Source: Acidobacteriota bacterium
GTDB taxonomy: Bacteria; Acidobacteriota; Blastocatellia; RBC074
Direction: 5' to 3'
NCBI GenBank assembly: GCA_022072205.1
Contig: JAJVID010000091.1
Coordinates: forward strand, 1,192-65,191
DNA: 64,000 nucleotides
Positions within the stretch are counted from its first letter, which is position 1. The number at the start of each line of letters is the position of its first letter. The notes under the pieces were generated by a model. The model did not search any database. It was not told the DNA's origin and saw only the letters and a list, made by a program, of their open reading frames with translations. The position numbers were made by a program, and so were the translations under genes. Of the stretch, positions 22,457 to 44,527 are shown piece after piece.

Positions 22457-22633
<177 letters not shown>

Positions 22634-23733: not shown

Positions 23734-24255
23734 ATGAGAACGCTTACGAGTTACCCTTATCGGTATCGGCGGAAAATCACGCGGAGAAGCGAGCAGGGAC
23801 AATCATTTCTCGAATTCGCCTTGATCGTGCCGGTTCTGTTTCTTATGCTGCTTGGCGTCACAGTCATCTCACAGGGGTTCAACCTGCAGATGGTTCTGTA
23901 CGGAGCGTCTTACGAAGGCGCGCGGGTCTGGGCGAAGAACCCGGCGGGCGGCGATGGAATCCATTGCATGCTACCCGCTTGCGATCCCAATTTGGGCACA
24001 ACGAACAACTTCGAGAAGTATGTGATTCCCGTTGTGCGGCAGTACATCACAAACAATGGGTTCGAGGGCGCCAAAGTCCGCTTTTTTGCCACAGATCAGC
24101 GCGGATATCAGAACGCCCTGAGCATCATTGGCAATAATCCGCAATGGGTCAGAGTTACTTTGCTCTATCCGTACGAACTACCGCTGGGAAACCTCGCAGT
24201 GAACTTCCAGCAGGTTTGGATCAGCGCGAGTTGTACTCTGAAGCGCGGGAGCTAG
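23734..24255 (+). CDS. TadE-like pseudopilin
   Basis: [23 protein letters not shown] is a TadE N-terminal signature with a G/XXXXEF processing site. Confidence 0.75.
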
Positions 24256-24284
24256 GGATTCACAACCGTCAGGTCGCAGGAGGT

Positions 24285-24818: not shown

Positions 24819-24898
24819 TATTGCCGGAGAGCTGTCGGAGGAATCCGTAGCCGCAATCTCCGTGCGCCCTGATCAAAACCCACGAAGGAGTTTACGAA

Positions 24899-25810: not shown

Positions 25811-25964
25811 AGTTGTGAGCTTGTGAGACCGGAGCCGCTGGCGCTTCGGTCTTTCGCTCATTGGAATGTCGTATTTCCTGTCCCCCCGCAGGCGGCCCCC
25901 AGGCTAGTGGATACCTGACAAGCCCATTGCAAATTTTGATACAGCCGAATTTTCAGGAGACTTT

Positions 25965-27638
25965 ATGAACACTCAACTCCACCGAATCCGCCCAGCCCTG
26001 CGATGCTTCTCTTTGCTGGTCGTGGCGCTCGCGGCCAGTTTGTGCGCGATGGCGCAGGAGCGGGCGACCCTGCAAGCTTCGTTCACCAATAACGCCGAGC
26101 CGATCAAGATTGACGTTCAGGTCGGCCAGTCGCGCGTCATTGATTTCGATCAGGAGGTAGACCGCGTCGCGAGTTCCGATCCGAAGGTCGTCGAAACGGT
26201 GCCGATCTCGTTCAAGCAGGTGCTGATCAACGGCCTGCAATTCGGCCAGGTCAACCTGGTCGCGTGGTCGAAGCCGAAAATCAAAGGCGAGGCGTCGCGG
26301 ATGCTGGTCTTCGACATTTACGTTCAGGTCAATCTTTCGCTGATTGACAACCAGATCAAGATTCTCTTCCCGAAAGAGAATATTCAGCTCTCGCAGGCGA
26401 ACAATTCGGTGGTGCTCTCAGGCAGCGTGACCAGACCGGAACTCTCCGAGCAGGCGCAGAAGATCATCGAGGCCGCCGGGTTGAAAGTCACGAACCTGCT
26501 TAAAGCGCCCGTGCTCGATGCGGCGCAGGTGCAGTTGCAGATTCGTGTGGCGGAAGTGAATCGCTCGATTTTGCGTGAACTGGCGACGGCTTATGGCGTG
26601 GGAAATAGCGTTGTGCCAGCTTTCGTAAGCTCCGGTGGCCCGGCACAGACAGGAGGCAGCCTGGATTTAGCCAAAGCAGGCGCTCTGGCCGCTATTGCCG
26701 AAGCGGGGGCAGGGGTCAATCTCTTGCTTGGAAATCCGAATGCGTCCGGCTCTGTTCTGGGCTTTGTTCGCGCGATGCATCAGCGCGGCGCGATCCGTGA
26801 GTTGGCCGAACCGAATCTGATCGCAATGCATGGTCAGAAGGCGAGTTTCCTTGCCGGAGGCGAATTCCCGATTCCGATCGTTCAATCTCTCAGCACCGGA
26901 CAATCGTCAGTGACAATCTTATTCAAGGAATTCGGAGTGAAGCTCAACTTCACGCCCACCATCATTGATGAGAATCACATCCGGCTGGAATTGGAGCCGG
27001 AGGTCTCGACTCCGGATTACACCTTCGGCATACGTTTGCAGGGGTTTGTGATTCCTGGGTTGATCACTCGAAGGGCGAAGACAACACTTGAACTTCGTGA
27101 TGGTCAGAGTTTCGCTCTTGCCGGTTTGATTGATAACCGCGAGCAGGTCAACCTGTCGAAGGTTCCAGTGCTGGGCGATATTCCGGTTTTGGGAGAGCTT
27201 TTCAAGAGCCGTAGTTTCCAGCGCAATGAAACTGAGTTGCTTTTCCTGGCGACGGTGAAAGTGGTTGAGCCGCTCAACCCCGACCAATTGCCGCGCTTGC
27301 CAGGTGTCAGCGAGTTGAAACCCGTAGGTTCCGCGAATCCCGCCGGCGCCGCTCCGTCAAGCTCTGTTGAAGGCCAGTCAGGACATTCTATCCCGCGCAA
27401 GGCCGGCGAACAGACTCCGGAGAGCGAGAACAAGACCAAATTGGAACAGCCGGCCACTGATAAACCCGCTACGGACAACGCCGATAAAGGCCTGACGGAG
27501 AATCTGACTTCGAAGCTGGCGCTTCCATCATCGCCGACCGGCCCAGCCGGACCAAGCGGTTCGGACGCGCGCCCTTCGAAGGCGGAAAACGCGCCGACGC
27601 CAAAGCCCGACGCAAAAGAGCAGAAGAAGCAGCAGTGA
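25965..27638 (+). CDS. cpaC: secretin CpaC/RcpA with long low-complexity C-terminal tail
   Basis: Signal peptide, then the secretin core [25 protein letters not shown]...[13 protein letters not shown]. The last ~115 aa are Pro/Ala/Ser/Lys-rich. Confidence 0.9.
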
Positions 27639-27770
27639 CAAACCCTGATTGCGATCAGTCGTTTCACCGTCGCCTGGCAGCCTCATCTGTTTTTTCGGAC
27701 GGGGCTGTAACTTCGGTAAGCGGCTTCGGAAATGCGCTTCAGAACAAAAGAAGAAATGGAGGTAACAAAA

Positions 27771-29135
27771 ATGAATCGCATCTTCACACGGCCAGGTTCC
27801 ATTCGTAATTTCTACCGCCGTCAGCAGAAAGGCTCGATCATGGTGCTGACGACGTTGTTGATCATGGGCATGATCGGAATGCTGGCGCTGGCGATTGACC
27901 TCGGATTTCTGTTCAGCGCTCGCAATCAGCTTCAGAACGGCATTGACGCCGCGACTCTGGCGGCTGGCGCGGGATTGCGCGTGACCATGGAGGACGATCC
28001 GGCGGCGCCGCAGCAGAAACTCCTTGCGCAGCAACTCGCCATTCAGTACGCAGGTTACAATCAGGTTCGCACCAAATCTGATCCTGACCCGAATGGCAAT
28101 CAGCCAAACGAGAACAATATCCAGTTGGATAAGATCGGAAAGGTAACTGTTGACACATCCGGCGATCTTCCGAGAGCGCAGGTTGACGCTGTTCTGAAGA
28201 CGCCATTGTTATTCGCCGGAATCTTCGGTTTCAACAGCATTGACATGGGCGCGACGGCTAAGGCTTCGCTGCTGCCGGTTGACGGAGGGAACGGGACGAT
28301 AGGCGCTGGAACCGCTATCGGCGGCGGTTGCTGGCGTCCGCTGTTCGTGCCAGACACGTTTTTCGATATAAACAACGTGCCATTGAGAGTCGGCGCCGTC
28401 ATTTCAGGCATCCCTCGCGTACCGAGTCAGGACGGCGATTATTATCGTTCGCGCTTCGCCGCTGGCGCGCGCAACACTTATCCGTTTGTTGACTCCATAA
28501 CGGGCGTTGGTTCTTCTGTCACAAGCCTTCGCGACACTCAATTGAAGGCCGATATCGGAGTGAAGACGATCATGGGCGAGGACATCGTTCTCGATCCCAA
28601 TTATTACTTTATCGCCGATTTCTCGGCGTTGCCGCGCGCGACATTCGATGTCTTGAGCGTTGGCGACCTCGCCAATTTCGGATACTGCGGCAAAATTCGC
28701 GTCGGCGACAACATCCCGGTTTATCCCATAAAAGATTTGGCGAAAAAAGATGAAGTGAGAACAGGGCTTCTCGCGCTGCAATACCGGACGGTCGGAGTTG
28801 ATTCGATTGACGTGACTACCGAGGCGCTTTTCCGCTACGTTACAAGCTCCAGTTATCCGGGCCCGAACACGCACGGCGCGATCATTCCGGTCTTGTTCTA
28901 CAACCCGATCATCTGGAAAGACCCCGGAGCAGTGGACGCGACGACCACGCTCACTGTCACCAACATCGGATTGTTCTTTATGAGGAACGTGAGGCCCACC
29001 GGTGAGCTTGAAGGATATTTTGTCCGCGAGATTATTTCCGGCGGAACTCCGATTGACGCGACGAATATGACGTCCGATAGTGATCCGAGCTTTAAACGAA
29101 GCTGGCTGCCGATGTCGGTTCAGCTACTCAAGTAG
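27771..29135 (+). CDS. TadG-like pilus assembly protein
   Basis: ATG 27771 follows a GGAGG RBS. GSIMVLTTLLIMGMIGMLALAIDLGFLFSARNQLQNGIDAATLAA matches the TadE/G-like N-terminal domain. Confidence 0.7.
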   Translation: MNRIFTRPGSIRNFYRRQQKGSIMVLTTLLIMGMIGMLALAIDLGFLFSARNQLQNGIDAATLAAGAGLRVTMEDDPAAPQQKLLAQQLAIQYAGYNQVRTKSDPDPNGNQPNENNIQLDKIGKVTVDTSGDLPRAQVDAVLKTPLLFAGIFGFNSIDMGATAKASLLPVDGGNGTIGAGTAIGGGCWRPLFVPDTFFDINNVPLRVGAVISGIPRVPSQDGDYYRSRFAAGARNTYPFVDSITGVGSSVTSLRDTQLKADIGVKTIMGEDIVLDPNYYFIADFSALPRATFDVLSVGDLANFGYCGKIRVGDNIPVYPIKDLAKKDEVRTGLLALQYRTVGVDSIDVTTEALFRYVTSSSYPGPNTHGAIIPVLFYNPIIWKDPGAVDATTTLTVTNIGLFFMRNVRPTGELEGYFVREIISGGTPIDATNMTSDSDPSFKRSWLPMSVQLLK

Positions 29136-29497
29136 GTGGATGAAGAGTACGCATAAATCCTGGGAGCGCGCGCGGATTGCGCGCCGCTATCGCAACCTTC
29201 ATCACGACGAAACCAAGCCAACTTAGCGCGTCTGAAACTCATCCGAAGGCCCCTGGAAATCAGCGGTTGCTGCTGAAATCTTGTCCGGGAATTTTTGATG
29301 GAGTTTCATTCCTGCTGAGACTATAATTCCGCCTCCGTTAGCCTTGTAGCCCCAAAGGATCCGTTCAACGGCTTTCATCTCAGGCTTGGCGTTAATTGGT
29401 TGCGCGGAATCCGAAGGCTGACGGCGCGAGTTGGAATTCCATCGTGGGCCAGGCCGCAAGAATCAAATTCAGGATTTAAGTTAAGGAACCGAAGTCA

Positions 29498-30697
29498 GTG
29501 TCAAAAGCGATTTCTGTTGTTGTCATCGGTCGAAGTTTGAACCAGCAAGAGCGAACGCGTCTGCGTAGCGCGAGCCATATCCCGCTGGCCATCGTGGCGG
29601 AATTGCCGAACGCTCCGCAGGTGCTGGACGAACTCAACCGGTTGCGTCCGCAAGCAGCGCTCGTGTTGCTCAACGGCGAACTGAACCATACATTTCAGCT
29701 CGTCGAGCGGATTCATCAGGAATTGCCGGAGACGGCGGTGATCTGTTCGTCCGAGGATAATTCTCCCGACGTTATTCTCCAGTCATTCAGATCAGGAGCT
29801 ATGGAGTTCCTGCGATTGCCGCTGGTCGAAACCGAGATTGCTTCGGTCTTTGCGAAGATTGAACAGACCGCCACGAAACCCGAAGAATCTCACGGACGCG
29901 TCATCGCTGTATACGCCAGCAAAGGTGGATGCGGGACGACGTTCGTGACGGCCAATCTGGCGGCTTCTCTGGCGCGGCTTTCGCGCAAACGCGCCTGCGT
30001 AATTGATCTGAATTTGCAGGCGGGCGATCAGCCGCTCTATCTGGGCCTGGAGCCGAATTATTCGATCCACGACATCGTCCGAAACTTCGACCGCCTGGAT
30101 GATCAGTTGATCGCCAGTTACCTGACGCAAAGATCGAAGTATCTGACGTTGCTCGCCGCGCCGACCGAAATCGGTAAAGATGAAGACGTGCGGGTTGAGC
30201 ACGTCACGCGATCAATCGCTTTGCTGCGCGCCCAGACAGAATACGTAGTGATTGACCCGCCTCGGATGTTAAATGAATTGACCATCGCCGCGCTCGACGC
30301 GGCTGATGATCTGATTCTGCTTCTGACGCTGGACATCCCGGCGATTCGCAGCGCGAAACGCGCGCTCGACATTTTCGCCCGACTCGGTTACGACCGCAGC
30401 CGGGTTAAAGTCGTGATCAACCGCTACACCAAGACTCCGGAGTTTGATCTGAAACAGGTCGGCAAGGTTTTAGAGACGGATGTCTTTGCGACGGTCGCCA
30501 ATGATTATCAGGCGGCGATCTCTTCGATCAACGTCGGCGAACCGCTGGTGCTTTCCAAGACCCAATCGCGCATAGTGCATGATTTCGGGACTCTGGCGAG
30601 CAAGTTGAGCGGTATCAGGCTGCCAAGTGAAAATTCCGAGGCCCCGGCGCGTCCGAGCCGTGGCGGCTGGACATCGCTCTTCGGCGGCAAGCGATAA
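29498..30697 (+). CDS. cpaE: CpaE/TadZ: atypical receiver domain + ParA/MinD-like ATPase
   Basis: [16 protein letters not shown] is the deviant Walker A. The N-terminal receiver-like fold has Asn (LVLLNGE) where the phospho-Asp would be, as in TadZ ARD domains. Confidence 0.85.
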
Positions 30698-30734
30698 GAA
30701 GGCAGGCGAATATTTTGCGCTACAACCGCTGATC

Positions 30735-30752
30735 ATATTTCATATGAAATAT
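30735..30752. promoter_or_regulatory. 18-bp perfect palindrome upstream of cpaF (candidate operator)
   Basis: ATATTTCATATGAAATAT is self-complementary. An extra GAAATAT half-site lies 9 nt downstream. It sits in the 250-bp cpaE-cpaF gap. Confidence 0.4.
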
Positions 30753-30947
30753 CGCATAGGAAATATGGTCTGATCGCTGCTTCCGGTTCCTGGCGTCGTC
30801 TTTGTTTCAGGTTTGCTCTCATCCGGTCGGCAATCGTCATCACTGATTTTGCGCCAGACCGGTTCTTGCCGGGGCGGCTGCCCCCACACACACAAACCCG
30901 GCGTTCAACTGCCCCCAAAAACTAGGCCCGAAAAAAAATAGAAAAAT

Positions 30948-32288
30948 ATGTCAGTTCTCAAAGAAAGATTACAAGAACAGCAGAACGGGTCTGCTTCACG
31001 CGCTACGGGCGCTTTGCGGGCGTCGAACGAATTGCAGGAACTCAAAGCCCGCGTTCACCGCATCCTGATCAATAAACTCGACCTGAGCAAACTGGAGAAC
31101 GCCGACCCGGAAGTAGTTCAGAAGGACGTGAAGAAGGTCATCGAGCGCATTCTCGATGACGAGAACGCGCCGCTCTCCGGGATTGAACGCGAACAGGTTC
31201 AAACCGACGTGCTGCACGAATTGTTCGGCCTCGGCCCGCTCGAACCGTTGTTGGCGGACAAAGGCATTTCCGATATTCTGGTCAACGGCTGGCGCAATGT
31301 TTACATCGAGCGGCGCGGCAAGCTCGAAAAAGTTGATGTCACGTTCCGCGATGACGCGCACCTGCTGCAGATCATTGACCGTATCGTGTCGCGCATCGGG
31401 CGCCGCGTTGACGAATCTTCTCCGATGGTGGACGCGCGTTTGTCTGACGGATCGCGCGTCAACGCCATCATCCCGCCGCTGGCGATTGACGGCCCCGTGC
31501 TCTCGATTCGCCGTTTCGGGGCTGAGCCGCTGACAATCAAAAACCTGATTGAACTGAAAGCGCTCACGCCGCCGCTCGTGCAGATGCTGGAGGCCTGCGT
31601 CAAATCGCGTCTCAACGTTCTGGTTTCTGGCGGAACCGGCGCCGGAAAGACCACCATGCTCAATTGTCTTTCGGGTTTCATTCCCAACGATGAACGTCTG
31701 GTGACGATTGAAGACTCGGCGGAGTTGCTGTTGCAACAGCCGCATGTGGTTCGGCTGGAAACGCGCCCGCCCAACATCGAAGGACGCGGCGAAGTGACGC
31801 AGCGCAGCCTGCTCCGCAACTCGCTCCGTATGCGTCCCGACCGAATCATCGTCGGCGAGGTTCGCGGCGACGAGGCGATTGACATGTTACAGGCCATGAA
31901 CACCGGTCACGACGGCGGTATGACCACCATCCACGCCAACACGCCGCGCGACGCCCTGGCCCGTCTCGAAACGATGATCGCCATGGCCAATTTGCGTATT
32001 TCCGATAAAGCCATGCGCCAGCAGATCAGCTCCGCCATCAATCTGATCATCCAGGTTTCGCGCATGGGCGACGGTTCGCGCAAAGTCGTGAGCGTCTCCG
32101 AAATCATCGGCATGGAAGGCGAGATCATCACGATGCAGGAAGTTTACAGATTCGTGCGCACCGGCGTCGGGCCGAAAGGCGAGGTGCTCGGCCAGTTCCG
32201 ACCGACGGGCATCAGGCCGCGTTTTTCGGAACGACTTGAACAGTACGGTTTCAGACTGCCGCCGAACGTCTTCGAGGCGGCGTTTTAA
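30948..32288 (+). CDS. cpaF: CpaF/TadA secretion ATPase
   Basis: Walker [12 protein letters not shown], Asp box, Walker [10 protein letters not shown] and His box [13 protein letters not shown]. Confidence 0.95.
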
Positions 32289-32304
32289 ATGAGTCAGGGG
32301 AGCT

Positions 32305-33276
32305 ATGGGCGGACTACTTTTCATTCTCATTCTCTTCGCATTCGTCCTGCTGACGGTGGCGATCTATTTTTTCGTCAGCCGGGACACCGATCAATATCGC
32401 CGCCGGATTGACGAACGGTTGAAGCAGTTGGTGCAGGAGCGCGGAGGCGCGAGCCAGCGCGAAATGCAACTTCTCAAGGAGGAACTGCTCAGCAACGTGC
32501 CGGCGTTCCACCGGGCGCTGATTCGCTTCGAGGTCTTCAATAATCTGCAGGCGGTGTTGCGTCAGGCCGACCTGAAGGTGTCGGTTTACCGTTTCGTGAT
32601 CTCCAGCCTGATTGGAGGCTTCGTCGTGGGAGTAGTGGTCTTCTTCATCTCCGGCTCACTGATGGCGATGTTGATGACGGCGGTGGTAGTTATGGTGATC
32701 CCTTTGATAGTCGTGCGGAACAAGCGGAGCCGCCGTTTCCGAAGCTTTCTGGAGCAGTTGCCCGACGCGTTGGAACTGATGGTGCGTTCGTTGCAGGCCG
32801 GGCACAGTTTCAGTTCGGCTCTGCAGATGGTTGCGACGGAAATGCCCGACCCAATCGCGCGCGAGTTCGGCAAGACTTATGAAGAGCAGAACCTGGGGTT
32901 GAATATCAAAGCGGCGCTTGAAAATCTGGCTGAGCGGGTGCCGATTCTCGATCTCAAACTTTGCGTTACGGCGGTGCTGATCCAGCGCGAGATTGGCGGC
33001 AACCTTTCCGAAGTTCTGCGGAACATCAGCCACACGATCCGCGAAAGGTTCCGCATCCAGGGGGAGATCAGAGTCAAGTCGGCGCAGGCGAGATTGTCTG
33101 GGTACATCGTCAGCGCGCTGCCGTTCTTTCTCTTTTTCTGGATCAACATTTTCAATCCCGCTTACATGAGGACGCTTTATGATCATCCTTACGGCGTCCT
33201 TATACTCGGAACGGGCGTGGTGATGCAGATCGTCGGCTGGCTGATCATTCGCAAGATCGTCAACATTCAAATTTAG
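32305..33276 (+). CDS. tadB: TadB (GspF-like inner-membrane platform protein)
   Basis: T2SSF domain: [22 protein letters not shown]...ENL, with terminal TM helices. Confidence 0.85.
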
Positions 33277-33358
33277 GAGGGAGTGGGGAATGTGAAGTAG
33301 GGGGAGGGAGTTATAGATCGCTAAACGAGCAAACTCACTACCCACTCTCTACTCCCGA
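33277..33358. repeat. degenerate heptamer-based inverted repeat between tadB and tadC
   Basis: GGGAGTGGGGAATG (33281-33294) is identical to 57061-57074. The downstream ACTCACTACCCACTCTCTACTCCC is an imperfect reverse complement (about two thirds of positions pair). Confidence 0.45.
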
Positions 33359-33367
33359 AAGGCGCTT

Positions 33368-34306
33368 ATGGATATTAACAGCCTGATACTTTTTGGTTCT
33401 CTGGCCTTTGCCGTCGGCAGCGGGATATTGGCTTTTTACTGGTTGTGGGCGCGACCGGCCAATCCGGTTGGAGACCGGTTGAGAGAGATCAACCCACACG
33501 CGGCTGAAGACTCTCCGTCTCAGCCGGTTTCGACCATCATTGTCGAACAGGTCGCCAAACGAATGGATCAGATCGCGCCGACTCCGTCGCCTCGGAATGT
33601 GCGCCGGTTGCGCAGACGTTTGATCCAGGCGGGGTTTTTCGATGAAAACGCGGTGACAATCTACCGCGTAATCCGGCTGATCTCAGCGGTGGCGTTTCCG
33701 GCCATCATGTTCTTTACGCTGACCGTCCTGCTTGGTTGGCCGGTTGATGTGACGACGCTGGGCGGAACGGTGCTTGCGCTCCTTTACGGCATGTTCCTGC
33801 CGTCGTTCTTCCTTTCGCGGATGATCTCGAACCGGAAAGGGCGGATTACGCGGGCGCTGCCTGACGCGCTGGATTTGATGGTCGTATGCGTCGAGGCGGG
33901 ACTGGGCTTGAACGCTGCGCTGCAACGCGTCGGACGTGAGATGGAACTTGTCGAGCCTGATCTGTCGGAAGAGATGGCCATCACCAACCGCGAGATTCGC
34001 GCGGGTAAGCCGCGCGACGAGGCGCTGCGCAACCTGGGTTCCCGCACCGGCGTGGATGATGTGAAATCTCTGGTGGCGATGCTGGTGCAGACGGACCGTT
34101 TCGGAACTTCAATTGCCGACAGCTTGCGCGTCTTCGCCGATTCGATGCGCACTAAACGCCGCCAGCGCGCCGAGGAACTCGTGGCCAAAGCGGCGATCAA
34201 GTTGATTTTTCCGCTGCTGTTATGTATTTTCCCCGCGCTGCTGATTGTGCTGATGGGGCCTGCGCTGATCAGAATCTGGACTCTGTTTGGCGCCGTCTCT
34301 CAATAA
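33368..34306 (+). CDS. tadC: TadC (GspF-like inner-membrane platform protein)
   Basis: T2SSF domain: [22 protein letters not shown]...R...G, with terminal TM helices. Confidence 0.85.
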
Positions 34307-34385
34307 GCTGAATCGGCAAACCGGCCATCTGGATACTCAAACGCCCTAAAAATATGACGCTGAAATTCTAAACAAGGAGACCCCC

Positions 34386-34547
34386 ATGCAGATTTTGGCT
34401 GCTCTGCTTCTGCAAGCAGAACCAGAAAGACCTGACCTGACGCTTAACTACATTATCATTGGCTTTCTTTTGGTAATTGCCGCGATTCTGAGTGTGATAG
34501 TCGTGCGTCGCCGTATGCGCGAACGCGATGACGACTGGGATAGCTGA
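34386..34547 (+). CDS. 53-aa single-pass membrane peptide (not in ORF track)
   Basis: An AAGGAGA RBS lies 6 nt upstream. The product is MQILAALLLQAEPERPDLTLNYIIIGFLLVIAAILSVIVVRRRMRERDDDWDS, with one TM helix and a basic stop-transfer. It sits between tadC and DUF192. Confidence 0.45.
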   Translation: MQILAALLLQAEPERPDLTLNYIIIGFLLVIAAILSVIVVRRRMRERDDDWDS

Positions 34548-34597
34548 ATTCAGGCGAGAAGCCAATCTCAGATTTGAGATTGGCCATCGCAATCGAA

Positions 34598-34942
34598 ATG
34601 AAGATTTATCATCGCGCGACCGGGCAATGTCTGGCTGAAAAGGTCGCGCTCGCCAACACAGTTTTCAAGCGGCTTCGCGGATTGATGTTCCGCCGCCGCC
34701 TCGCCCCCGCCGAAGCGATTTGGCTGCGCCCCTGCAACGGCGTCCACACTTTCTGGATGCTCTTCGCGATTGACGTGATCTTTCTCGATCAACAACTGCG
34801 AATCGTCAAGCTGGTTGAAAATATGCGCCCGTTCCGCGTGACTTCGCCGCAACTGGCCGCGCGCAGTGTGGTGGAAATGCCCGCGCACACGATCTCGCGC
34901 GCCTCGCTCAAAGTGGGCGATCAGCTTGAAATCGTGCGCTGA
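34598..34942 (+). CDS. DUF192 (COG1430) domain protein
   Basis: [17 protein letters not shown]...[17 protein letters not shown]...VVEMPA...KVGDQLEI follows the DUF192 consensus. Confidence 0.75.
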
Positions 34943-34955
34943 CACGCCTCTCACA

Positions 34956-36614
34956 ATGACGCAGGCAAAAAGGCCAACAGGAGAAGACAGCCGATCAAGG
35001 AACAAAAAAGTCGGCGCGATCGCGCGCTGGCTTCTCCCTTCGACCGGCAGTTACTGCCTGCTGATCGCGCTCTTCCTGCTGGTCAACAACTCGTGGCGAT
35101 TTCTGATTGACAGCGACACGGGATGGCACATCCGCGCGGGCGAGTTGATCCTTGAAACCCACGCTGTCCCGCAGCGCGACGTGTTTTCGCACACGATGGC
35201 CGGGCGCGAATGGTTCGCGTGGGAGTGGTTGACCGATGTGATGATGGCGGCGCTGCATCACCAGTGGGGATTGGCCGGTGTGGTCGGCGGGGCGTTTCTG
35301 GTTTTACTGGCGAGTTACGCCGCGCTTTACCGGATGGCGCTCCGGCGTGGCGCTGATCCGATGATCACCCTCGCCGTTACGATCTTTGCAGTCTTGTGCG
35401 GCATCGTTCACTGGCTGGCGCGCCCGCATCTGGTTTCCATCGCGTTGATGGTCGCCTGGTATGCGGCGGTGGAAAGCTTTCGGCGAGATCGAAGCAGGTG
35501 GATTTACCTCCTGCCGCTGCTGATCGCGCTATGGGCCAATTTGCATGGCGCTTTTGTCGTTACGTTCATAATCCTTGCGGTTTATGCCGCAGGCGAGTGG
35601 GCTGAGTTTGCGGCGCGCGGCGAATGTGGCGCGGCGTCAATGTGGCGGGTGTTGCGAACCTACGCGGTTGTCGGAGCGCTTTCGGCGGTTGCCGCGCTCG
35701 CGACGCCGTACGGATTCAAACTTTACGGCCATCTTTGGCGATATTTGACAGATGCGAAACTGCTCTCGACCATCAGCGAATTTCAGTCGCCTGATTTCCA
35801 CATGCTGGACGGCAAGCTGATTGAAATTCTTCTGCTCCTGGCTGCAATCGCGGCGGCGAACGCGATCCGGCAGCGCCGCTTCGTCGAAGTGGGACTGCTG
35901 ATTTTGTGGGGGCACATGACACTGCGATCGGAGCGGCACGTCACGCTGGCCGTCGTGATACTGGCTCCGATCATCGCTGAACAATTCAGCGCGTTGACCG
36001 CCGAATTTGCTGACCGCGCGACCGCAGGGATGGGCAGGGCGGCGCGAGTCCTCCGAACCGCGCGCGGCTGGTATCGTGAAACGATGGGGATTGACCGGCA
36101 ATTGACCGGAGCCTTTGCCGCCGCCGCCGTCTTCGTTTTTGTCATTGCCGTGATGGGTAGCGGATTGGCGGAGAAAATTTTGTCGCCGCATTTCAGTCCG
36201 AACCGCTTCCCGGTGGCCGCCGCCGATTTCATCCTGCGAACGAAGCCGGAAGACCAGCTTCAGGGCCGGTTAAACGGGAAGATGTACTCTTCGGATCAGT
36301 TCGGCGGTTATTTGATTTACAGGCTCTACCCGCAGTTCAAGGTCTTCGTTGACGGACGCAGCGATTTTTACCGGCGCGGCGCGGTGTTGGATGACTACGA
36401 CAAGATCGCGACCGTCAAGCCGCAATGGTCGGAACTGCTGGACAAATACGATATACAGTGGATGACGTTGCGCCGCGACGAACCGCTTGCGCTGATCGCG
36501 CTGATGAGCGGGCGTTGGCGGAGCGTTTATGAAGATTCGGTAGCTCAGATTCTGATCAGGAAACCCGTTCAACCCGATCAAGCAATGGACAGCCAAACGA
36601 ACAACGTCAAATAG
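34956..36614 (+). CDS. polytopic membrane protein with C-terminal soluble domain, GT-C-like (unknown function)
   Basis: ATG 34956. The loop motif [15 protein letters not shown]...[20 protein letters not shown] and WANLHGAF resemble ArnT/PMT-like membrane enzymes. There are about 11 TM helices. Confidence 0.55.
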
Positions 36615-36675
36615 CTCCGGCCTTTGCTGTTGTTCATCAAATGCCCGTGAAGGGGCTTAAGAAAGGTTGTGAATT

Positions 36676-37761
36676 ATGGCTTGGAACAAATTCTTTCGTT
36701 ATTTGCGTCAACCTGCGATTACGGCTGTCGTTGTGATCGCGCTGTCGCTTGTCGCCGTGACTGCGATTCCGAGCGTGCGCACGCGCGTCAGCTCAAGTCT
36801 GGGTTCGGGCGCCAATCTCTTCCTGTTCGATGATGACGCTTCTGACGAGGCGTCAGGAGAAGCTTCCGCAGAAGCGGCGCCGGAGGGCAAGAACGGCGCG
36901 CCATCCGAAGGCAAGAAACGCAACGGGTTCAAACGAGTAGTGACCGCGCCGGTGCGGTTGTTCGCCCGCCTGTTCAGGAGGAAAGACAACAACGAAATGG
37001 CGATGAAGAAGGCGAGCGAGAAGGATTTTGAGAAGATGAAGATGATCCCGATGAACCGCACGCGGGACGGCATCGCCGACGCCAACAACGGGCTTGCGCC
37101 GGAAGCCACCACCGCCGAAGTCGCGGCGAAGAACCTGTTTGAAGAGGCGATTGAATTGCACGATAGAGGCCGGCTCGATGGTTCGATTGAAAAGCTGGTG
37201 GCCTCGACCGTGCTGCAACCCAATTTCGCCGAGGCTTTCAATCTGCTTGGGGTTTGTTACGACGAGAAAGGCCAATATCGTCTTGCGCAGGAAGAATACA
37301 AGAAGGCCTTGAAGATCGAATCCAACAACGCCCGGTTCCTGAACAATCTCGGCTATTCGTGCTATCTGTCGAACGATTTCGGCAATGCCGTCAAGTATTA
37401 CAACAAGGGGTTGAAGATCACGCCGAACGACCGCCGCATGCACAACAACATCGGATTGGCATACGGACGCAAAGGCGATTACGACAAGGCGAAGCAGCAT
37501 TTCGTGATCGCTGTCGGCGAAAACGGCGCGAATCTCAATCTCGGTTACGTCTACAGCCAGCAGGGCAAATATGAAGACGCGATCAAATATTACGAAGCCG
37601 CGCTTCGCTCACAGCCGCAATCGCTTCCCGCGCTGAGCAATCTGGCCAGCCTTTACGAACGCACGGGCCGGTTGCGCGAGGCCGCCACACTCAACGATCA
37701 ATACAAGAAGTTGGCCGTAGCCGCGCAGCAAAAAGATCAGACTGTTGATCAGGATCGGTAA
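36676..37761 (+). CDS. membrane-anchored TPR repeat protein (TadD-like)
   Basis: N-terminal TM helix, an acidic/low-complexity linker, then about 6 TPR units ([32 protein letters not shown]...). Confidence 0.7.
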
Positions 37762-37763
37762 TC

Positions 37764-37866
37764 GGTGGTTGGTGGTTGGTGGTTGGTGGTTAGCCGTCTT
37801 TTGAGCGGTCAATCATTCATCGCCGATCACTTCCTGCCAACCACCAATCACCAACCACCAACCACC
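37764..37866. repeat. inverted arrays of heptamer GGTGGTT x4 / AACCACC x4 (28-bp stem, 47-nt loop)
   Basis: (GGTGGTT)4 at 37764-37791 pairs with AACCACC AATCACC AACCACC AACCACC at 37839-37866, with one mismatch. It starts 3 nt after the TPR stop and ends 16 nt before the next ATG. Confidence 0.85.
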
Positions 37867-37882
37867 CAGCTTATGTCAGCTT

Positions 37883-39157
37883 ATGAATGAAGCAGTACAA
37901 GCCAGAATGGAAGCTTTTGCGCCTCCGGTTACAGAATCCATTGAGGCTACGGGACTTTCTTTTCAGTTCCTAGCCGATCTGGCGCTCAAGATTTCCGCGA
38001 CTGAAAGCACGCTGACGACGGCCACAATATCCGATCGGATGTGTTTGCCTCTGACGCTGGTCGAACAGATGATGCAGCACCTTTACCGCGAGAAACTGGT
38101 CGAGATTCGCGGGAGCGTTGGGTTCAGCAACAATCGTTACGCGCTGCTCGATCGCGGATGGGATCAGTTGAAGCGCGTCATGGAGATTTCAGGCTACGTC
38201 GGCCCTGCGCCGGTTTCGCTTGCGGCTTACAGCGCGATGATGCGTTCGCAGGCTCAGCCCGAAGAACTGATCGGGCCTGATCAGGTGGCCGACGCGTTTC
38301 ACGATCTGGTTTTGCCCGACAGCTTGCTCCAGACGCTCGGGTTTGCGATCAATTCGCGCCGCAGCCTTTTCATCTCCGGCATTCCCGGCACCGGCAAGAC
38401 CTCCGTCGCCGAACGTATCAACAACGCGCTGCTGACGCCGATCTGGGTTCCTTACGCCGTCGCGATTGATGAACACGTCATCAACATTTACGACGCGCAC
38501 AATCACGACCGCACTCTGGACGAAGATAATTTCGACGTTTTCGACCGCCGCTGGCTGCGTATCGCGCGCCCGTTGATCATCGTCGGCGGCGAGATGACTC
38601 TGGAAAGCACCGACCTGATCTACAATCGCGCGGCGCGTTATTACGAGGCCCCATTCCAGATCAAGGCCAATTGCGGCACGCTGGTGATTGACGATTTTGG
38701 CCGCCAGCGGGTCGAGCCGGAAGAACTGCTCAACCGGTGGATCATTCCGCTCGAACGCAAGGTTGATTTTCTGACTCTGCACACCGGCAAGAAAATCAGC
38801 GTGCCTTTTGAACAACTGGTTGTTTTCTCGACCAACCTCGAACCGAGCCGGTTGGTTGACGAAGCCTTCCTGCGGCGAATGGGTTACCGCGTTCGCGTCG
38901 AACCGCCTTCCGAAGAAACCTACCGCAGAATTTTTGAAAGGTATGCCGAAAACGCTGGCGTCTATTACGACAGATCAGTGCTCGATTACCTGCTTTCGAA
39001 ATATGAGGCTGAAAAGCGCGTGATGAAAGCCTGCGAGCCGCGCGACCTGCTCAGCCGGTTTCTGGACATCTGCCAGTACAAAAATCTGCAGCCGACGCTC
39101 ACCCCGGACCTGCTCGATCTGGCCTGGAATAATTACTTCGGCGTCGCGCACGTTTGA
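37883..39157 (+). CDS. AAA+ ATPase with N-terminal winged-helix-like domain
   Basis: Walker [11 protein letters not shown], Walker [12 protein letters not shown] and the sensor/Arg region [10 protein letters not shown]. The N-terminus [29 protein letters not shown] looks wHTH-like. Confidence 0.7.
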
Positions 39158-39181
39158 AAATCCCGTGAGAATTTAAGCTGT

Positions 39182-40084
39182 ATGCGTCTGAGCTTTGTCG
39201 CTAAAAGGCCGATGATGGTCATCCTGGTTTGCCTGCTGTTGTGCGCCGCCGGCGTGCGAGCGGACGAATTGCATCTGAAGAACGGGCGTATGGTCGAGGC
39301 CGAGGAGGTTTGGGAAGTGGGCGACGCGATTTGGTACCGGCAGGGAAAGGTCATCGCTTCGTTCGCCAGGACGGATGTCGCCCGGATTACGAAATCGAAA
39401 CCGGCGCCGGCGGCCAGCCTTTCATCTGTCAGTAATTCAGGCGAAAGCGCCAATGGCGATGAAATGGTGACGCGCACGGTGTCGCGGATTTTGCTCAAAG
39501 GCGGGAGGCAGATTGACGCCGACGCCGTCTGGGAAAATTCGGGATTGGTCGGTTACCGGCTGGGCAAGATGCAAACCGTCATTGACCGCAGAGATGTCGA
39601 ACGTATCGTCCACGATGTCACGGTCACCGAACCGAAGTCCGTGGCGGCTAATGCGAGTTTGCGTTACACGACCGGGCATAGCGGACTTGACCGGCTGATC
39701 GCATACAGCGGCGACAAGTACGACATTGATCCGACGCTGATCTTTCTGATAATGCGCGAAGAGTCGAGGTTCAATCATCGGGCCGTTTCGCGCGTCGGCG
39801 CGCGTGGATTGATGCAATTGATGCCGGGAACGGCGGCCAAACTCGGCGTTCGGAACATTCACGATCCGGTAGAAAATGTTGACGCGGGCACCAGGTATCT
39901 GCGCACTTTGCTGGAGATGTTCAACGGAGATGTTAATCTGGCTCTGGCAGCGTATAATGCCGGCGAAGGCGCCGTGATGAAATACGGCCGCCGCATTCCG
40001 CCGTACCGTGAAACGATGAATTACGTCTGGCGGATCAACACGGCTTATCGTCGCGCGATGGCTGCTAATCGGAATGAGAAATAG
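39182..40084 (+). CDS. secreted lytic transglycosylase (SLT domain)
   Basis: Signal peptide, then [26 protein letters not shown]...AGTRYL...[10 protein letters not shown], the catalytic Glu-Ser context of family 1 LTs. Confidence 0.85.
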
Positions 40085-40279
40085 ACAGGATTGACCGGAT
40101 CAATGACGCCTGCGAGCGGTTGATATTATTCTTGAAGACGCCGTGATTCCTGTCTATGGTTGGTTCACTCACTGACTCGCGATACCCCTTCCTCCGAGTC
40201 TGTGTCACTGGGTACAGTCTCCCTGCTGTAATGAAGCCGCAATCGTAGCAGCGCCCGCCGAGGAGCCTTCAGGTAGAAA

Positions 40280-40306
40280 TTTTCACGTAAGCCCTTTTCA
40301 CGTAAG
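40280..40306 (+). repeat. direct repeat TTTTCACGTAAG x2 abutting the RBS of 40316
   Basis: Copies are at 40280-40291 and 40295-40306, spaced by CCC. The second copy runs into the AGGAGG RBS. Confidence 0.35.
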
Positions 40307-40315
40307 GAGGATTGT

Positions 40316-41083
40316 ATGAAGTATCTCGCCCCTCTTTGTTTCGTGATTACCCTGGCGCTGGCTGTGGCCGGCGAGGCTAACGCGCAAAATCGCCCCGACA
40401 TCAACAAGCGCGAAGTGTTGACCAACGAAGCGATCGTCAACCTCGCCAAAGCCGGGTTCAAGGAACGCACGATCATCACCCTGATCCGCACTTCCGACAC
40501 CGCGTTCGACATCTCGACGGCCAAACTGGTCGAATTGAAAAAGCGCGGCGTCAACGAGCGCGTCATCAGCGAGATGATCGAACGAACCAATTACGGCGCC
40601 GCCGCTCAACGGCTGACCACGCTGCGCGACGATGAATTCTTCGCCAAAGATGACGAAGCTTTCTTCAACGGCCCGATCTTCAAAGAGCTGCCGACCGAGA
40701 AGGAAGCGAAGCGAAAAGAAGACGAAGCGATGATCTTCGGCTCGCAATCGGGTTCAGGCAGCAAGACCAGAAGCCGGGGCCTGGGGCCTAACGGCGATCG
40801 CAGCCAGCAGAGCGAAACGACCGGGACGGCTACGGTCAGAATCATTCGTCCTCCGAGCGAAGGCAATCCCGAGCCGAAATTGCAGCGCCCCGCCAAGTTG
40901 GACAACAAAGGCATTCTGGAAATGATCCAGGCCGGTTTCTCCGAAGGCACGGTGCTCCGCAAGATCGAATCGTCACAGGTTGATTTCGACCTTTCGTCGA
41001 AAGCCCTCGGCGACCTGCGCCAGAACCGCGTCAGCGAGCGCATCATCACTGCGATGAAAACAGCGATGGACGAATCGAAGTGA
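40316..41083 (+). CDS. secreted protein with two copies of an ~50-aa repeat, unknown function
   Basis: Signal peptide. [49 protein letters not shown] is repeated as [48 protein letters not shown]. Confidence 0.6.
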
Positions 41084-41197
41084 TGACGGAATCAAAGGGC
41101 AAGTGATGGCCAGACCCTTGAAACATCGTTGGGAGAAGATTTGAAGAGAGAGCACGGAAAAGACAGTGATAACGGAACAAACGGAAAGATTTCCCCG

Positions 41198-42244
41198 ATG
41201 CTTTTCCGTTATTTCCGTGCTCTCTCTTTCCTCGCTGTTTTCATCGCGCTGTGGGGGGCGCCGTTTCCCGTCCGCGCCCAGACCTCACAGTCGAATCAGG
41301 AGAAGCAGGAGCAGAAAGACCGCCAGCGCAAGCCCGGCGAAGATGTGATCGCAATTGACACCGCCGAAGTCCTGCTGCCCGTCACCGTGCGCGATTCTTC
41401 CGGACAGTTCGTGACCGATCTGAGGGCCGAAGATTTCATCATTTACGAAGACGGCGCCCAGCAGCCCATCAGTTCCTTCGCGCTCAAACGCATGCCGGTT
41501 CACGTTGTGATGATGATTGACACAAGCAGCAGCGTGGCGCATGAACTCGAAGACTTCAAAGAAGCCGCCTGGCGCTTCATCAACCAACTCGATCCCGAAG
41601 ACAAATTCTCATTGATCCGTTTCGACGACCAGGTCGAACTGGTGCAGGATTGGACCAACAGCCGCAACGCGCTGAAACGCGCGCTCAACCGTCTGGGAAC
41701 CGGGATGTTCACGAAATTCAACGACGCGCTTTATCTGGCGGCGCACGAGCAATTGGGCAAGATCAAAGGCCGCAAGGCGATCATCGTTCTGACCGACGGC
41801 ATTGACAGCGGGCGCGGCTCGGTTTCGAGCGAACGCGCCTTCCGCACGCTGATCGAAGAAGAGACGCCGGTTTATGCCGTCAGCAAAACGCGAATTCAGC
41901 GGCGCGCCGACAACGAAGAACTTGAGTATTTCGAGAAGGCTTCGTCTTCGTCGGTGAACAGCCTCCGCATCGAGGGCCTGAAGATGAAGATCGCCCAACT
42001 CGAATCCAGCGAACGCAACATGACCCGCATCGCCGAAGAGACCGGCGGGCGAATTTTCCTGCCCGCGAGCTTCGACGATCTGAGCGACGCTTATCAACAG
42101 GTCGCCGATGAACTTCGTTCCCAGTACGTGATCTTTTACACCCCGACGAACTCAAACCGCGACGGCAGCTACCGCGCAGTCAAAGTCAAAGTCAAACAAC
42201 CGGGCTATCACGCGACTACGCGCTTTGGCTACTACCTCAAATAA
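41198..42244 (+). CDS. secreted VWA domain protein (VWFA-related acidobacterial type)
   Basis: ATG 41198 gives a signal peptide. [17 protein letters not shown] is a MIDAS DxSxS, followed by FSLIRFDD...[10 protein letters not shown]. Confidence 0.8.
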
Positions 42245-42280
42245 TAAACACCTTTCAACGCCCCGCCGATTTCAACGAAT

Positions 42281-43549
42281 ATGCCTTCAAACAACGAAAG
42301 TACAGGCGAGGCGCGAAACCGCTCAAACAGAATCAAACTCTTCGTCGTTGTGGTCTTCGCGCTCATCGCCGCCGCAAGTGGCTTCTGGGGTTATCAACGT
42401 TACCGCGCAAGCGGCGCGACGCTGACAACGGCGGAAATAACCGAACTGGCGAAAACGGCCGCGTCAGAGGATCGCCAAGCCTGGCTGCGTCTGGCGCGCG
42501 CCGCATTGACCGCCGAGAACGTGCAAGCCATCATCGCGCCTACGGAGCCGACGAATAATCGAGGCGAAGCTTCGCGCGTCGAGCTTGGCTATCTGCTCTT
42601 CTTCGATCCGATCCTGTCTGGCGACAAAACCACTTCCTGCGCTTCGTGTCATCACCCCGATTATGGAATGGCCGACGGGCTGAAGAAGGGAATCGGCGCT
42701 GGCGGACACGGCTACGGCTTGCAACGCGCGGGCACGGGGCGCGAATTGCAGCGCAACACGCCGAGCCTTTTCAACGTCGCCTACAACCCGATCCTGTTCT
42801 GGGATGGGCGCGCCGGAACGCTCGAAGAACAGGCGCTGGAGCCGATCTTCAACGAACACGAATTGAATCAATCGAGCGCCGCCGAACTGGTGAAAAGTTT
42901 GCGCGCGATCCCGAAATACCGCGAGTTGTTCGCCAAAGCGTTCGGCTTCAACTCGCCGCAGGACGGGCGCGAGATCACTCTCCAAAACATCGCGCGCGCC
43001 ATCGCGGCATTCGAGCGCAAGCTGAACATCACCGAAACCGATTACGACCAGTTCGTCAAAGGGAAGGATGATAAGCTCACGACTGAGCAATTGCGCGGGC
43101 TGGTCGTGTTCATCGGCCAGGGGCAATGCGCCGCCTGTCACATCCCGCCGCATTTCCACGACGGCGTTTTGTCTTCGACTGGGACGCCTGTCTCCGCGGA
43201 GAAAGGCGCGCCGCTCGATTCCGATCCGGGTTTCGGCGCAGTGATTCGCCGCGAGGACGGGTTCGGGATGTTCAAGACGCCAGGCCTGCGCAACGTAGCC
43301 CGCACCGCGCCATACATGCACAACGGCGCGTTCAACACACTAGAAGAGGTCGTGGATTTTTATAATGACGGCGGAGGCCGCGGACGCGGGCTTGATGTTT
43401 ACAGCCAGGACGTGAAGGTGGCTAAGCTGAACCTGACCGAACAGCAGAAGAAAGACCTGGTCAGTTTTATGAAATCGCTCAACGACACCGCCCCTCCGCC
43501 GCAAACGCCGGCCAGTGTGCCTAGCGGGCTGCCGGTTGTCGGCAAGTAG
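42281..43549 (+). CDS. di-heme cytochrome c peroxidase (CCP/MauG family)
   Basis: Two CxxCH motifs (CASCHHP, CAACHIP), plus [21 protein letters not shown]. Confidence 0.9.
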
Positions 43550-43656
43550 AAACCGCACGCAGCCACTGCGCCTTCGTCGTGAAAAACGCCGGCCTTTTGC
43601 CTTTTGATTTTCTGGGCTAGAATCCGGATGTAAGCGACAACAATCACGACAAAACG

Positions 43657-44115
43657 ATGCCCGAATTTACCAAAGAGAAAGAGATATTCTTTGAACATCT
43701 CAGGCGCGCCGGGTTCAAAAAGACCTCGCAGCGCGAGTTGATACTCGACGTTTTTCTCAAAACCGAAGGCCATCTCAGCGCCGAAGACCTGTATAACATT
43801 GTCAAAGTCGAAGACCCGACCGTCGGCTTCACGACTGTTTACCGCACGCTCAAGCTTCTGGTCGAATGCGGGCTGGCGCGCGAAGAGCGTCTGGGCGACG
43901 GGCGCGCGCGTTATGAACACCTTTACAACCACCAGCACCACGACCATCTGATCTGCACCCAATGCGGCCAACTGATAGAGTTTTACAGCGAAGAGATCGA
44001 GAATAAACAGGACGAAATCGCCGCGAATCACGGTTTTCACCCGACACGCCACAGCCTGCGCATCTGGGGAATCTGCTCGGAGTGCCAGGTGAAACGCCAG
44101 GCGGCTGGACGTTGA
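43657..44115 (+). CDS. Fur family transcriptional regulator (PerR/Fur-like)
   Basis: [11 protein letters not shown]...SAEDLY...[24 protein letters not shown] and CSEC metal sites. Confidence 0.9.
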
Positions 44116-44134
44116 TGCCTCGGAATATCGAATC

Positions 44135-44527
44135 GTGAACCGGAAAAACTCACGGCGAAATTTGTTGATCATCTGCGCCTGCGCCGGCATTTTCTACGGT
44201 TGCGCCAGCCAGGATGCGAAAGACGGCAGAAGCGAGGCAGACCAGAATCGTGAAAAAATCGGCGCTGAAGATTTCATGCCGGAGCGGATACGAACTGTTT
44301 ATGTCCGCAGTTGCGCTTCGTGTCACGGCCCCGACGGGCACGGAATCAAGGCGATTGCGCCTGATCTCTACCGCGCCAAACATCGCAGCGCGGAAGAGTG
44401 GGAAAAGTATCTGCGCGATTCCAGAGACGCTCATCCTGTTGCGCAACCGCCGCCATTGTGGCTTGACGCGGACGAGATGAAAGAGATGGCGGAATATCTG
44501 GAGTTGATAACCCGGCGAAATCAGTAA
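44135..44527 (+). CDS. c-type cytochrome lipoprotein
   Basis: Cys-containing signal (LIICACAGIFYGCAS) and a single CASCHGPDGHG heme motif. GTG start. Confidence 0.75.
   Translation: MNRKNSRRNLLIICACAGIFYGCASQDAKDGRSEADQNREKIGAEDFMPERIRTVYVRSCASCHGPDGHGIKAIAPDLYRAKHRSAEEWEKYLRDSRDAHPVAQPPPLWLDADEMKEMAEYLELITRRNQ

Follow-up and report, generated by a model that had tools for sequence, protein, structure and literature searches.

The window analysed here is a stretch of 64,000 nt from a soil Blastocatellia-class Acidobacteriota metagenome-assembled genome (MAG; GCA_022072205.1, contig JAJVID010000091.1, positions 1,192 to 65,191), whose nearest GTDB genomes are Blastocatellales MAGs. It carries a complete Tad (type IVc, Flp) pilus cluster at 22457-34306 on the plus strand, followed directly and on the same strand by eight genes that encode a 53-aa membrane peptide, a DUF192 protein, a 552-aa GT-C-fold membrane protein (mem552), a TPR protein, an AAA+ ATPase, an SLT-family lytic transglycosylase, a secreted two-repeat protein and a secreted VWA protein. 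We consider it probable that these genes extend the Tad cluster as a series of accessory sub-modules, each of which recurs beside tad genes elsewhere. The original prediction had treated the eight as a single accessory module; their recurrence next to tad genes bears out the association, and the differing depth and combinations of the sub-modules speak against one unit, so that the data partly support a picture in which the genes are not random neighbours but a mosaic. The DUF192 and AAA+ genes have the deepest association with Tad loci, and the AAA+ gene neighbours tad genes in three or more named phyla.

Gene order was compared in 80 tadC-anchored loci with 10 kb flanks, taken from GTDB species representatives and mapped with the window proteins by tblastn. 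The near set comprised 49 Blastocatellia-like loci with TadC 63-90% identical to that of the window, counted below over loci with enough sequence, and the distant set comprised 31 loci (TadC 40-56%) from Gemmatimonadota, Vicinamibacterales, Terriglobales and a 'Deltaproteobacteria' MAG. Within the near set the order tadC-53 aa-DUF192-GT-C-TPR-AAA-SLT-repeat-VWA was almost invariant: the 53-aa reading frame was kept in 44/45 loci, DUF192 followed tadC in 43/43, and the GT-C, TPR and AAA+ genes were found in 34/35, 34/34 and 33/34, with the SLT gene after AAA+ in 28/32, the repeat-protein gene after SLT in 28/31 and the VWA gene in 27/29. The distant set retained both DUF192 (17 of 24 loci) and AAA+ (16 of 18) straight after tadC, the latter at 35-42% identity over 96% of its length. 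DUF192 and AAA+ thus adjoin tadC in Blastocatellia, Vicinamibacteria and Gemmatimonadota, and several Vicinamibacterales loci have a VWA protein after AAA+. Shared gene order with tad genes, named in the original prediction as its critical comparison, therefore reaches well past near relatives. In one Blastocatellia-like locus (L024) the tadA-tadB interval (~5088-8967) and the TPR-AAA interval (~13382-16742) are each longer by about 2-2.5 kb, and this extra DNA may represent insertions.

Tracing the AAA+ protein outward gave the same association in more distant bacteria. A tblastn search of PLSDB plasmids returned 76 records, from Rhizobium, Sinorhizobium, Ensifer, Burkholderia, Paraburkholderia, Salipiger, Photobacterium and Pseudorhodobacter. 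Plasmid p42e of Rhizobium etli CFN42 has an annotated Tad operon whose second T2SSF gene is followed immediately by the AAA+ gene (annotated 'ATPase AAA', WP_011428170.1). Burkholderia pyrrocinia and B. stagnalis carry it between the prepilin peptidase gene (tadV) and cpaB, and in Pseudorhodobacter the order is tadC-TPR-AAA. Locus L091, whose AAA+ protein is 66% identical to that of the window, holds the identical eight-gene block, from the 53-aa reading frame and DUF192 through SLT and the repeat protein to a final VWA gene, and is then followed by a convergent TonB-dependent-receptor-like gene; it is mainly this locus that marks the 3' boundary of the block after VWA. Locus L088 (AAA+ 58% identical) has tadC-TPR-AAA-SLT-repeat protein only, its repeat protein being 35% identical to that of the window, and in L092 the AAA+ gene is divergent from flp. 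A further arrangement appears in L084, where tadA-B-C is followed by DUF192, epimerase, PAP2 and GT2 genes, a 504-aa gene and a mem552 homologue, and in L093, where tadA-B-C is followed by DUF192, a set of four genes (505-562 aa) that includes two mem552 homologues, and GT2, with AAA+ convergent in both loci. The mem552 homologue of L123 (54% identical) is convergent and abuts tadC, in a locus that lacks DUF192 and AAA+. Recurrence of the block genes next to tad genes in these lineages makes them good candidates for undescribed pilus accessory functions.

The AAA+ protein (37883-39157, +) is an orphan ATPase with a probable N-terminal winged helix, and an NCBI entry from 'Acidobacteria bacterium' (P0001) matches it with 100% identity. 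Its motifs argue for membership of the AAA+ superfamily: Walker A GIPGTGKT at residues 166-173, Walker B IDDFG at 269-273, the sensor-1 residue N318 and the arginines R331/R332. Among 55 diverse members that are 34-52% identical to the window protein, G166, G169, G171, K172, D270, D271 and R331 are invariant, and N318 and R332 are kept in at least 90%. The acidic pair of Walker B is DD, not DE, a form known from AAA+ proteins that act as slow switches, DnaA among them. The family also shares a Y.GPAPV motif and, from Walker B to sensor 1, the consensus IDDFGRQ..P..LLNRWIVPLE..vDyLtL.tG.kf.VPFd.llVFSTN..P..L.DEAFLRRI, which in our reading resembles the MoxR/ChlI/YifB pattern and may explain the JGI label 'predicted ATPase with chaperone activity'. 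At E<1e-30 the family extends to 698 cluster representatives (50% identity clusters), and it has no dedicated Pfam or NCBIfam model. Sub-threshold Pfam hits in the family are to AAA_16 (48/55 members), AAA_5, AAA, Mg_chelatase, AAA_22, bpMoxR and Sigma54_activat; those to AAA_5, Mg_chelatase and bpMoxR occur in 20-29 of the 55 members with best E values of 3e-6 to 3e-5, which leaves the family outside MoxR/ChlI/AAA_5, and bpMoxR gives the window protein itself 15.6 bits, below the cutoff of 27. A profile search of the PDB returned only generic, short-segment AAA+ matches, led by midasin-type domains and including NSF, spastin, p97 and Vps4. The winged helix-turn-helix (wHTH) domain proposed from the sequence has as its support sub-threshold hits to Rrf2, MarR, TrmB, GntR, IclR and PadR in 6 of 10 diverse members. 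Its region is conserved less than any other in the protein, whereas conservation across phyla is high in the ATPase core and the C-terminal domain. A defence-island interpretation was set aside: a PADLOC scan gave no full-length match, with the AAA+ protein matching IetA only partially (residues 122-189) and TRIP13 weakly, and the other block proteins giving generic TPR matches only.

The DUF192 protein (34598-34942, +; from 34574 with an upstream TTG) comprises 114 aa from its ATG and belongs to PF02643 (COG1430; 5e-22, 78.2 bits against a cutoff of 27). This agrees with the domain assigned to it earlier, to which we add that the protein has no signal peptide and is therefore probably cytoplasmic; its PDB relatives, 3M7A and 3PJY, are both uncharacterised. 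We hold a functional tie of the AAA+ and DUF192 proteins to the pilus to be likely. Between tadC and DUF192 lies the gene for the 53-aa single-pass membrane protein (34386-34547, +), which matches no Pfam or NCBIfam family and has a hydrophobic helix at residues 22-40 followed by RRRMRER; the consensus of its homologues is ERPDLT.NY.II..LL..AA.LSVIVVRRRM.E.DDDW.

The polytopic protein mem552 (34956-36614, +), for which no Pfam or NCBIfam model was matched, is a GT-C-fold glycosyltransferase as judged from its AlphaFold2 (AF2) model. Structure prediction was confident for this protein (predicted local distance difference test, pLDDT, 85; pTM 0.86) and poor for the AAA+ protein, and Foldseek matched the mem552 model in the PDB to STT3/OST, DPY19, AftA, ArnT and PglB with probability 1.0 and template-modelling scores of 0.38-0.59 (top hits 0.55-0.59), bearing out the earlier description of the protein as GT-C-like. 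D52 and D54, in a DSD motif, are invariant in 32 homologues and lie just past the first transmembrane helix in the first extracytoplasmic loop; given that the N-terminus carries seven K/R residues, this loop should face the periplasm. GT-C enzymes have their catalytic acidic motif (DxD/ExD-type) in the first external loop, and the DSD of mem552 would correspond to it by loop position. Homologues of mem552 adjoin tadC in L084, L093 (two copies) and, inverted, in L123, and family hidden Markov models (HMMs) detected remote homologues in the Acidobacteriota loci L070, L072 and L076 (the last from Vicinamibacteria), a few kb downstream, and another in the 'Deltaproteobacteria' MAG locus L077, where it lies upstream of the Tad genes.

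The TPR protein encoded next (36676-37761, +) matches TPR_1, TPR_2, TPR_11 and related models with E values down to 4e-31. The TPR assignment stands, with the correction that the protein is anchored by a single N-terminal transmembrane helix (residues 13-31), and, its first cysteine being residue 194, it has no lipobox. In at least 17 homologue clusters (among P0161-P0198) the GT-C and TPR parts form one polypeptide of 907-932 aa. Locus L010 encodes such a fusion in one uninterrupted 909-aa reading frame (11592-14321). Its last 346 residues match the window TPR protein over its full length at 65% identity and retain the start methionine and transmembrane helix of that protein. The topology count for mem552 gives 11 transmembrane helices with the C-terminal domain outside, so that the TPR domain, taken with the fusion, would be cytoplasmic; the charge distribution of the stand-alone TPR protein points instead to a periplasmic TPR domain, contrary to the fusion-based placement.

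Further glycosylation genes lie upstream of flp on the minus strand. They encode four GT-C-type membrane glycosyltransferases and are all divergent from flp: a PTPS_related gene (20092-21903), two GT87 genes (18743-20149 and 17421-18740), whose products are 43-45% identical to each other, and a PIG-V/PMT_2 gene (16144-17409). The four-gene cluster also stands next to flp in L096, L097, L098, L106 and L107 (47-76% identity), and in Burkholderia (L082, B. pyrrocinia, 7350-11431) GtrA, GT2 and two GT87 genes are divergent from three flp genes. Together with the GT2, PAP2 and epimerase genes that accompany the mem552 homologue in L084, and the GT2 gene of L093, these neighbourhoods would fit a recurring picture of periplasmic glycosylation from polyprenyl-phosphate sugars around Tad loci. 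A functional tie of the GT-C and TPR proteins to the pilus seems to us somewhat more probable than its absence. Upstream of the glycosyltransferase cluster, 13156-14497 (-) holds a truncated DDE_5 transposase-like reading frame and a Uma2-family endonuclease-like one.

The SLT protein (39182-40084, +) is a secreted lytic transglycosylase with a signal-like N-terminus and a PF01464 match of 1.1e-31 (109 bits against a cutoff of 21.3). Its catalytic motifs are intact (EES at 193-195, GLMQ at 209-212, AYNAG at 257-261), as expected of family 1, and two repeats precede the catalytic domain at its N-terminus (z = 14.6 against shuffles). The window encodes a further SLT domain at 58244-58570 (-), which shares 35% identity with the catalytic domain of the Tad-linked protein. 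The gene that follows (40316-41083, +) encodes a 255-aa protein, also with a signal-like N-terminus, whose two internal repeats had been noticed from the sequence and proved real in Smith-Waterman comparison (z = 16 against shuffles), a method that detects them where a BLAST self-comparison did not. The repeats span about 55-60 aa each (LTN..I..L.KAGF.E.TII.LIR.S...FD.S...L.ELK...V.E.II.AM) and are separated by a conserved segment starting FGSQSGS. With a profile built from 17 orthologues, the PDB gave no match and Pfam only a sub-threshold one to DUF7626, which points to an orphan family. Wall-modifying enzymes also occur in other Tad loci: the R. etli p42e operon (L081) has an L,D-transpeptidase gene (10010-10573) between tadZ and cpaF, and in Pseudorhodobacter a gene with an SLT domain stands shortly before cpaB, so that such enzymes in Tad loci may exceed those reported. 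A functional tie of the SLT and repeat proteins to the pilus we favour by a narrow measure. The block ends with the secreted VWA protein (41129-42244, +; PF00092/PF13519), which has a metal ion-dependent adhesion site (MIDAS) motif, DTSSS, at 131-135. The VWA (MIDAS) call was upheld, with the refinement that the protein belongs to TIGR03436, an Acidobacteria-specific VWA family (231.9 bits against a cutoff of 81.25, 1.3e-68); its tie to the pilus is more doubtful than probable.

These observations can be combined in a working model of the block. The AAA+ protein would act at the cytoplasmic face, where it may use ATP to assemble or remodel the TadA/TadB/TadC/TadZ platform or, alternatively, regulate flp and tad as an ATP-gated DNA-binding protein. 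The GT-C enzyme, its TPR partner and the four upstream GT-C proteins may move sugars on the periplasmic side from donors that would be polyprenyl-phosphate-linked, with the Flp pilin or another exported pilus component as the most plausible acceptor. The SLT and two-repeat proteins could open the peptidoglycan locally for the envelope-spanning conduit, and the secreted VWA/MIDAS protein may serve adhesion or assembly. On a broader scale, we put forward tentatively, at slightly less than even likelihood, that the wHTH-AAA+ family, often with DUF192, is an unrecognised and widespread component of a large Tad clade spanning Acidobacteriota, Gemmatimonadota and Alpha- and Betaproteobacteria, including the genetically tractable Rhizobium and Burkholderia, and that this clade may also encode its own lytic transglycosylase and a GT-C-based periplasmic pathway that glycosylates the pilus.

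Several observations weigh against this model or against the original prediction of a single module. All of the functions proposed for the eight genes are ones that we infer. The TPR-AAA-SLT-repeat set of L088, set beside the DUF192, GT-C paralogue and AAA combination of L084 and L093, shows that the block is not one unit, and the GT-C-TPR fusion in many relatives ties the TPR protein to the glycosyltransferase, so that it is not simply a TadD-type pilotin. Near-set synteny is also shared by genes unrelated to pili, a MauG-like gene (21/26) and a Fur gene (14/24), which makes close-range gene order weak evidence by itself, and among distant tadC loci tblastn found SLT in 0/15, the repeat protein in 0/15 and the 53-aa peptide in 0/24. 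Six AAA+ homologues (43-46% identical; L083, L085, L086, L087, L121 and L122) have no tad gene within 10 kb. Their contigs are Chloroflexota-type (Kouleothrix, Anaerolineae-like, Limnocylindria), and linkage to Tad in cis is thus not obligatory in the family. A rough neighbour-joining tree places the six inside the Tad-linked proteins, which would fit an ancestral Tad link with later separation in Chloroflexota without proving it. The AF2 model of the AAA+ protein, built from a 28-sequence alignment, is poor (pLDDT 48), and its fold class is consequently read from motifs. TIGR03436 is Acidobacteria-specific and, we take it, a large paralogous expansion, so that the adjacency of the VWA gene may be partly incidental. 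The upstream four-gene GT-C cluster is not beside flp in L105 and L109. Counts from a promoter and terminator scan of 33000-44500 were at shuffle level, leaving operon structure unproven, and a 231-nt gap stands ahead of the repeat-protein gene. Finally, glycan density is absent from the Tad pilin of Caulobacter (PMC10710030). Among the six Chloroflexota-type contigs, we also observed that the gene after AAA+ encodes a TPR and YkuD (L,D-transpeptidase) protein in L086, and that an iSTAND, AAA and VWA_CoxE trio follows AAA+ in L122.

In a competing explanation the AAA+ protein would not be part of the machine and would act simply as a locus-specific, ATP-gated winged-helix transcription regulator binding DNA to control flp and tad, by analogy with PprAB, which is encoded in the Pseudomonas aeruginosa tad locus. 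The wHTH hits are consistent across diverse members even though sub-threshold, the gene is divergent from flp in L092, its position and orientation relative to tad genes vary among lineages, its Walker B pair recalls switch-like AAA+ proteins, and the stand-alone Chloroflexota copies are compatible with action in trans. We nonetheless regard a purely regulatory role as unlikely, in that the wHTH region is the least conserved while the ATPase core and C-terminal domain are strongly conserved across phyla, and in that the protein shares with ring-forming AAA+ remodellers its invariant or nearly invariant sensor-1 and arginine-finger positions. For the GT-C, TPR and other glycosylation genes, the corresponding question is whether their product is a surface glycoconjugate (for example a lipoglycan, a cell-wall glycan or an adhesive polysaccharide) that is merely co-located or co-regulated with the pilus. 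GT87, PMT_2 and PIG-V-like GT-C enzymes commonly make lipoglycans and polysaccharides, and the separation of the upstream cluster from flp in some relatives, the PilZ-cellulose-synthase-like GT2 and the PMT near the L093 genes and the lack of a visible glycan on the Caulobacter pilin all agree with that role. Adjacency of the mem552 family to tadC is nevertheless kept in four divergent lineages, in one of them inverted, GT-C genes abut flp in Blastocatellia and Burkholderia alike, and a GT-C enzyme, TfpW, reportedly arabinosylates a P. aeruginosa type IVa pilin, which offers a mechanistic precedent; we therefore judge the glycoconjugate explanation somewhat unlikely.

Two explanations that make the pilus link incidental are much harder to sustain. 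In one, the AAA+, TPR and VWA proteins would form a MoxR/Bat-like chaperone system, as might be read from the sub-threshold AAA_5, Mg_chelatase, bpMoxR and Sigma54_activat hits, the midasin-type domains at the top of the PDB search, the VWA gene directly after AAA+ in Vicinamibacterales loci and a weak match of the TPR protein to BatC. This is very improbable: no MoxR model reaches threshold, the signal-peptide-like N-terminus of the VWA protein probably places it in another compartment than the cytoplasmic ATPase, and the Tad loci of R. etli, Burkholderia, L088 and L092 have AAA+ without a match to the window VWA protein or a nearby annotated or called VWA gene. In the other, which we rank as the least probable of those weighed, the genes have no functional link and neighbour the tad operon through shared ancestry within one class, as the co-conserved MauG-like and Fur genes of near relatives and the lack of detectable operon signals would allow. 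Against this, adjacency of AAA+ and DUF192 to tad genes crosses phyla and survives rearrangement, L091 keeps the block boundary after VWA although its flanking genes change, and GT-C adjacency survives the inversion in L123, so that shared ancestry without function is largely refuted for the AAA+, DUF192 and GT-C genes. The accessory sub-module interpretation is accordingly the one that we retain.

The core cluster upstream of the block is the textbook set, with every component recognised on the plus strand. It starts with a 58-aa Flp prepilin (22457-22633), which scores slightly under the Flp_Fap cutoff (PF04964, 5.6e-07, 29.7 bits against 32.2) yet carries the processing motif G/QDIVEY (G/xxxxEY). 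All others exceed the Pfam gathering cutoff: the TadV A24 prepilin peptidase (23099-23647, Peptidase_A24), two TadE-like pseudopilins (23734-24255 and 24144-24818, TadE), CpaB/RcpC (24899-25810, RcpC), the secretin (25965-27638, Secretin), TadG (27732-29135, Tad), TadZ/CpaE (29498-30697, AAA_31), the TadA/CpaF ATPase (30948-32288, T2SSE), TadB (32305-33276, T2SSF) and TadC (33368-34306, T2SSF). RcpB, CpaD and a lipoprotein TadD were not recognised at this locus. Near-identical genes are present on contig WBZR01000134.1 (130,613 bp).

All eight downstream reading frames listed in the original prediction are present on the plus strand straight after tadC, Pfam confirms the DUF192, TPR, SLT and VWA domains assigned to them, and the gaps from tadC through VWA (79, 50, 13, 61, 121, 24, 231 and 45 nt) match their earlier description as mostly short. 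Spacing cannot mark the end of the block, as a MauG/MbnH-like di-haem peroxidase gene begins only 36 nt beyond VWA on the same strand and is followed by a Fur-family regulator gene (together 42281-44115, +). Most near relatives keep both genes, and they are absent from L091 and were not found by tblastn in the distant loci. An Rfam scan of 22000-44500 gave zero matches, and inspection by eye of the 231-nt gap before 40316 revealed nothing obvious.

Compared with the canonical Tad/Flp locus (flp, tadV, rcpCAB, tadZABCDEFG or cpaA-K), the eight downstream genes are not among the component lists in recent papers, including those on Caulobacter, and we found no published account of them as Tad components in a literature coverage that leaves most subscription journals outside. 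Like the TadD/CpaO pilotin, the TPR protein contains TPR units and is encoded after tadC; unlike that lipoprotein, it has a transmembrane helix in place of a lipobox cysteine and corresponds in many relatives to the C-terminal part of a polytopic inner-membrane GT-C fusion. Mem552 shares its fold, first-loop acidic motif and TPR association with PglB/STT3, ArnT, AftA, TPR-containing PMT/TMTC proteins and TfpW, and differs from the known pilin and periplasmic GT-C enzymes in matching no Pfam or NCBIfam model and in being linked to Tad and not to type IVa pili, a link that, as far as we found, is previously undescribed. The AAA+ protein recalls ExeA/GspA, the AAA+ ATPase of type II secretion, as an extra ATPase encoded with a secretin-based machine, but has no transmembrane helix or PG_binding domain and reaches only 18 bits on AAA_22 against a cutoff of 27. 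With MoxR/ChlI-type proteins it shares the Walker B-sensor 1 region, although all hits lie below threshold, and it is set apart from both groups by its unique N-terminal wHTH-like domain and Y.GPAPV motif.

Dedicated lytic transglycosylases serve many envelope machines, among them EtgA/IagB of type III secretion, VirB1 of type IV secretion, flagellar SltF/FlgJ, BfpH of type IVb pili and PilT of R64. The window SLT protein resembles them in its intact catalytic motifs and its place within the gene cluster of the machine, and is distinguished by the pair of repeats at its N-terminus and by an orphan partner encoded in a conserved neighbouring gene. Such specialised enzymes of envelope-spanning machines are the subject of Koraimann 2003, as cited in a 2025 structural paper (PMC12307814), according to which no peptidoglycan-cleaving enzyme or lytic transglycosylase has been reported with the Tad pilus. 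In Caulobacter the deacetylase-like CpaM has only been suggested to remodel peptidoglycan (PMC12637624). This polysaccharide-deacetylase-like protein is a precedent for a non-core, envelope-remodelling Tad accessory factor, but it belongs to another protein family and is encoded away from the cpa operon.

Many bacteria use Tad pili for adhesion, biofilm formation, surface sensing and predation, and the inventory of pilus components is regarded as essentially complete, with the single bifunctional motor ATPase CpaF/TadA. Were the links described here merely regulatory or incidental, the gain would be a modest one in annotation, for three orphan families. If they are functional, a further locus-encoded ATPase conserved across phyla would be a new player in assembly or control, with a role directly testable in Rhizobium etli or Burkholderia, and a locus-encoded lytic transglycosylase would answer how the pilus crosses the cell wall in at least some lineages. 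The GT-C enzymes that flank flp likewise suggest pilus glycosylation in soil bacteria. The main interest of the locus thus lies in its cross-phylum AAA+ family and its locus-encoded lytic transglycosylase.

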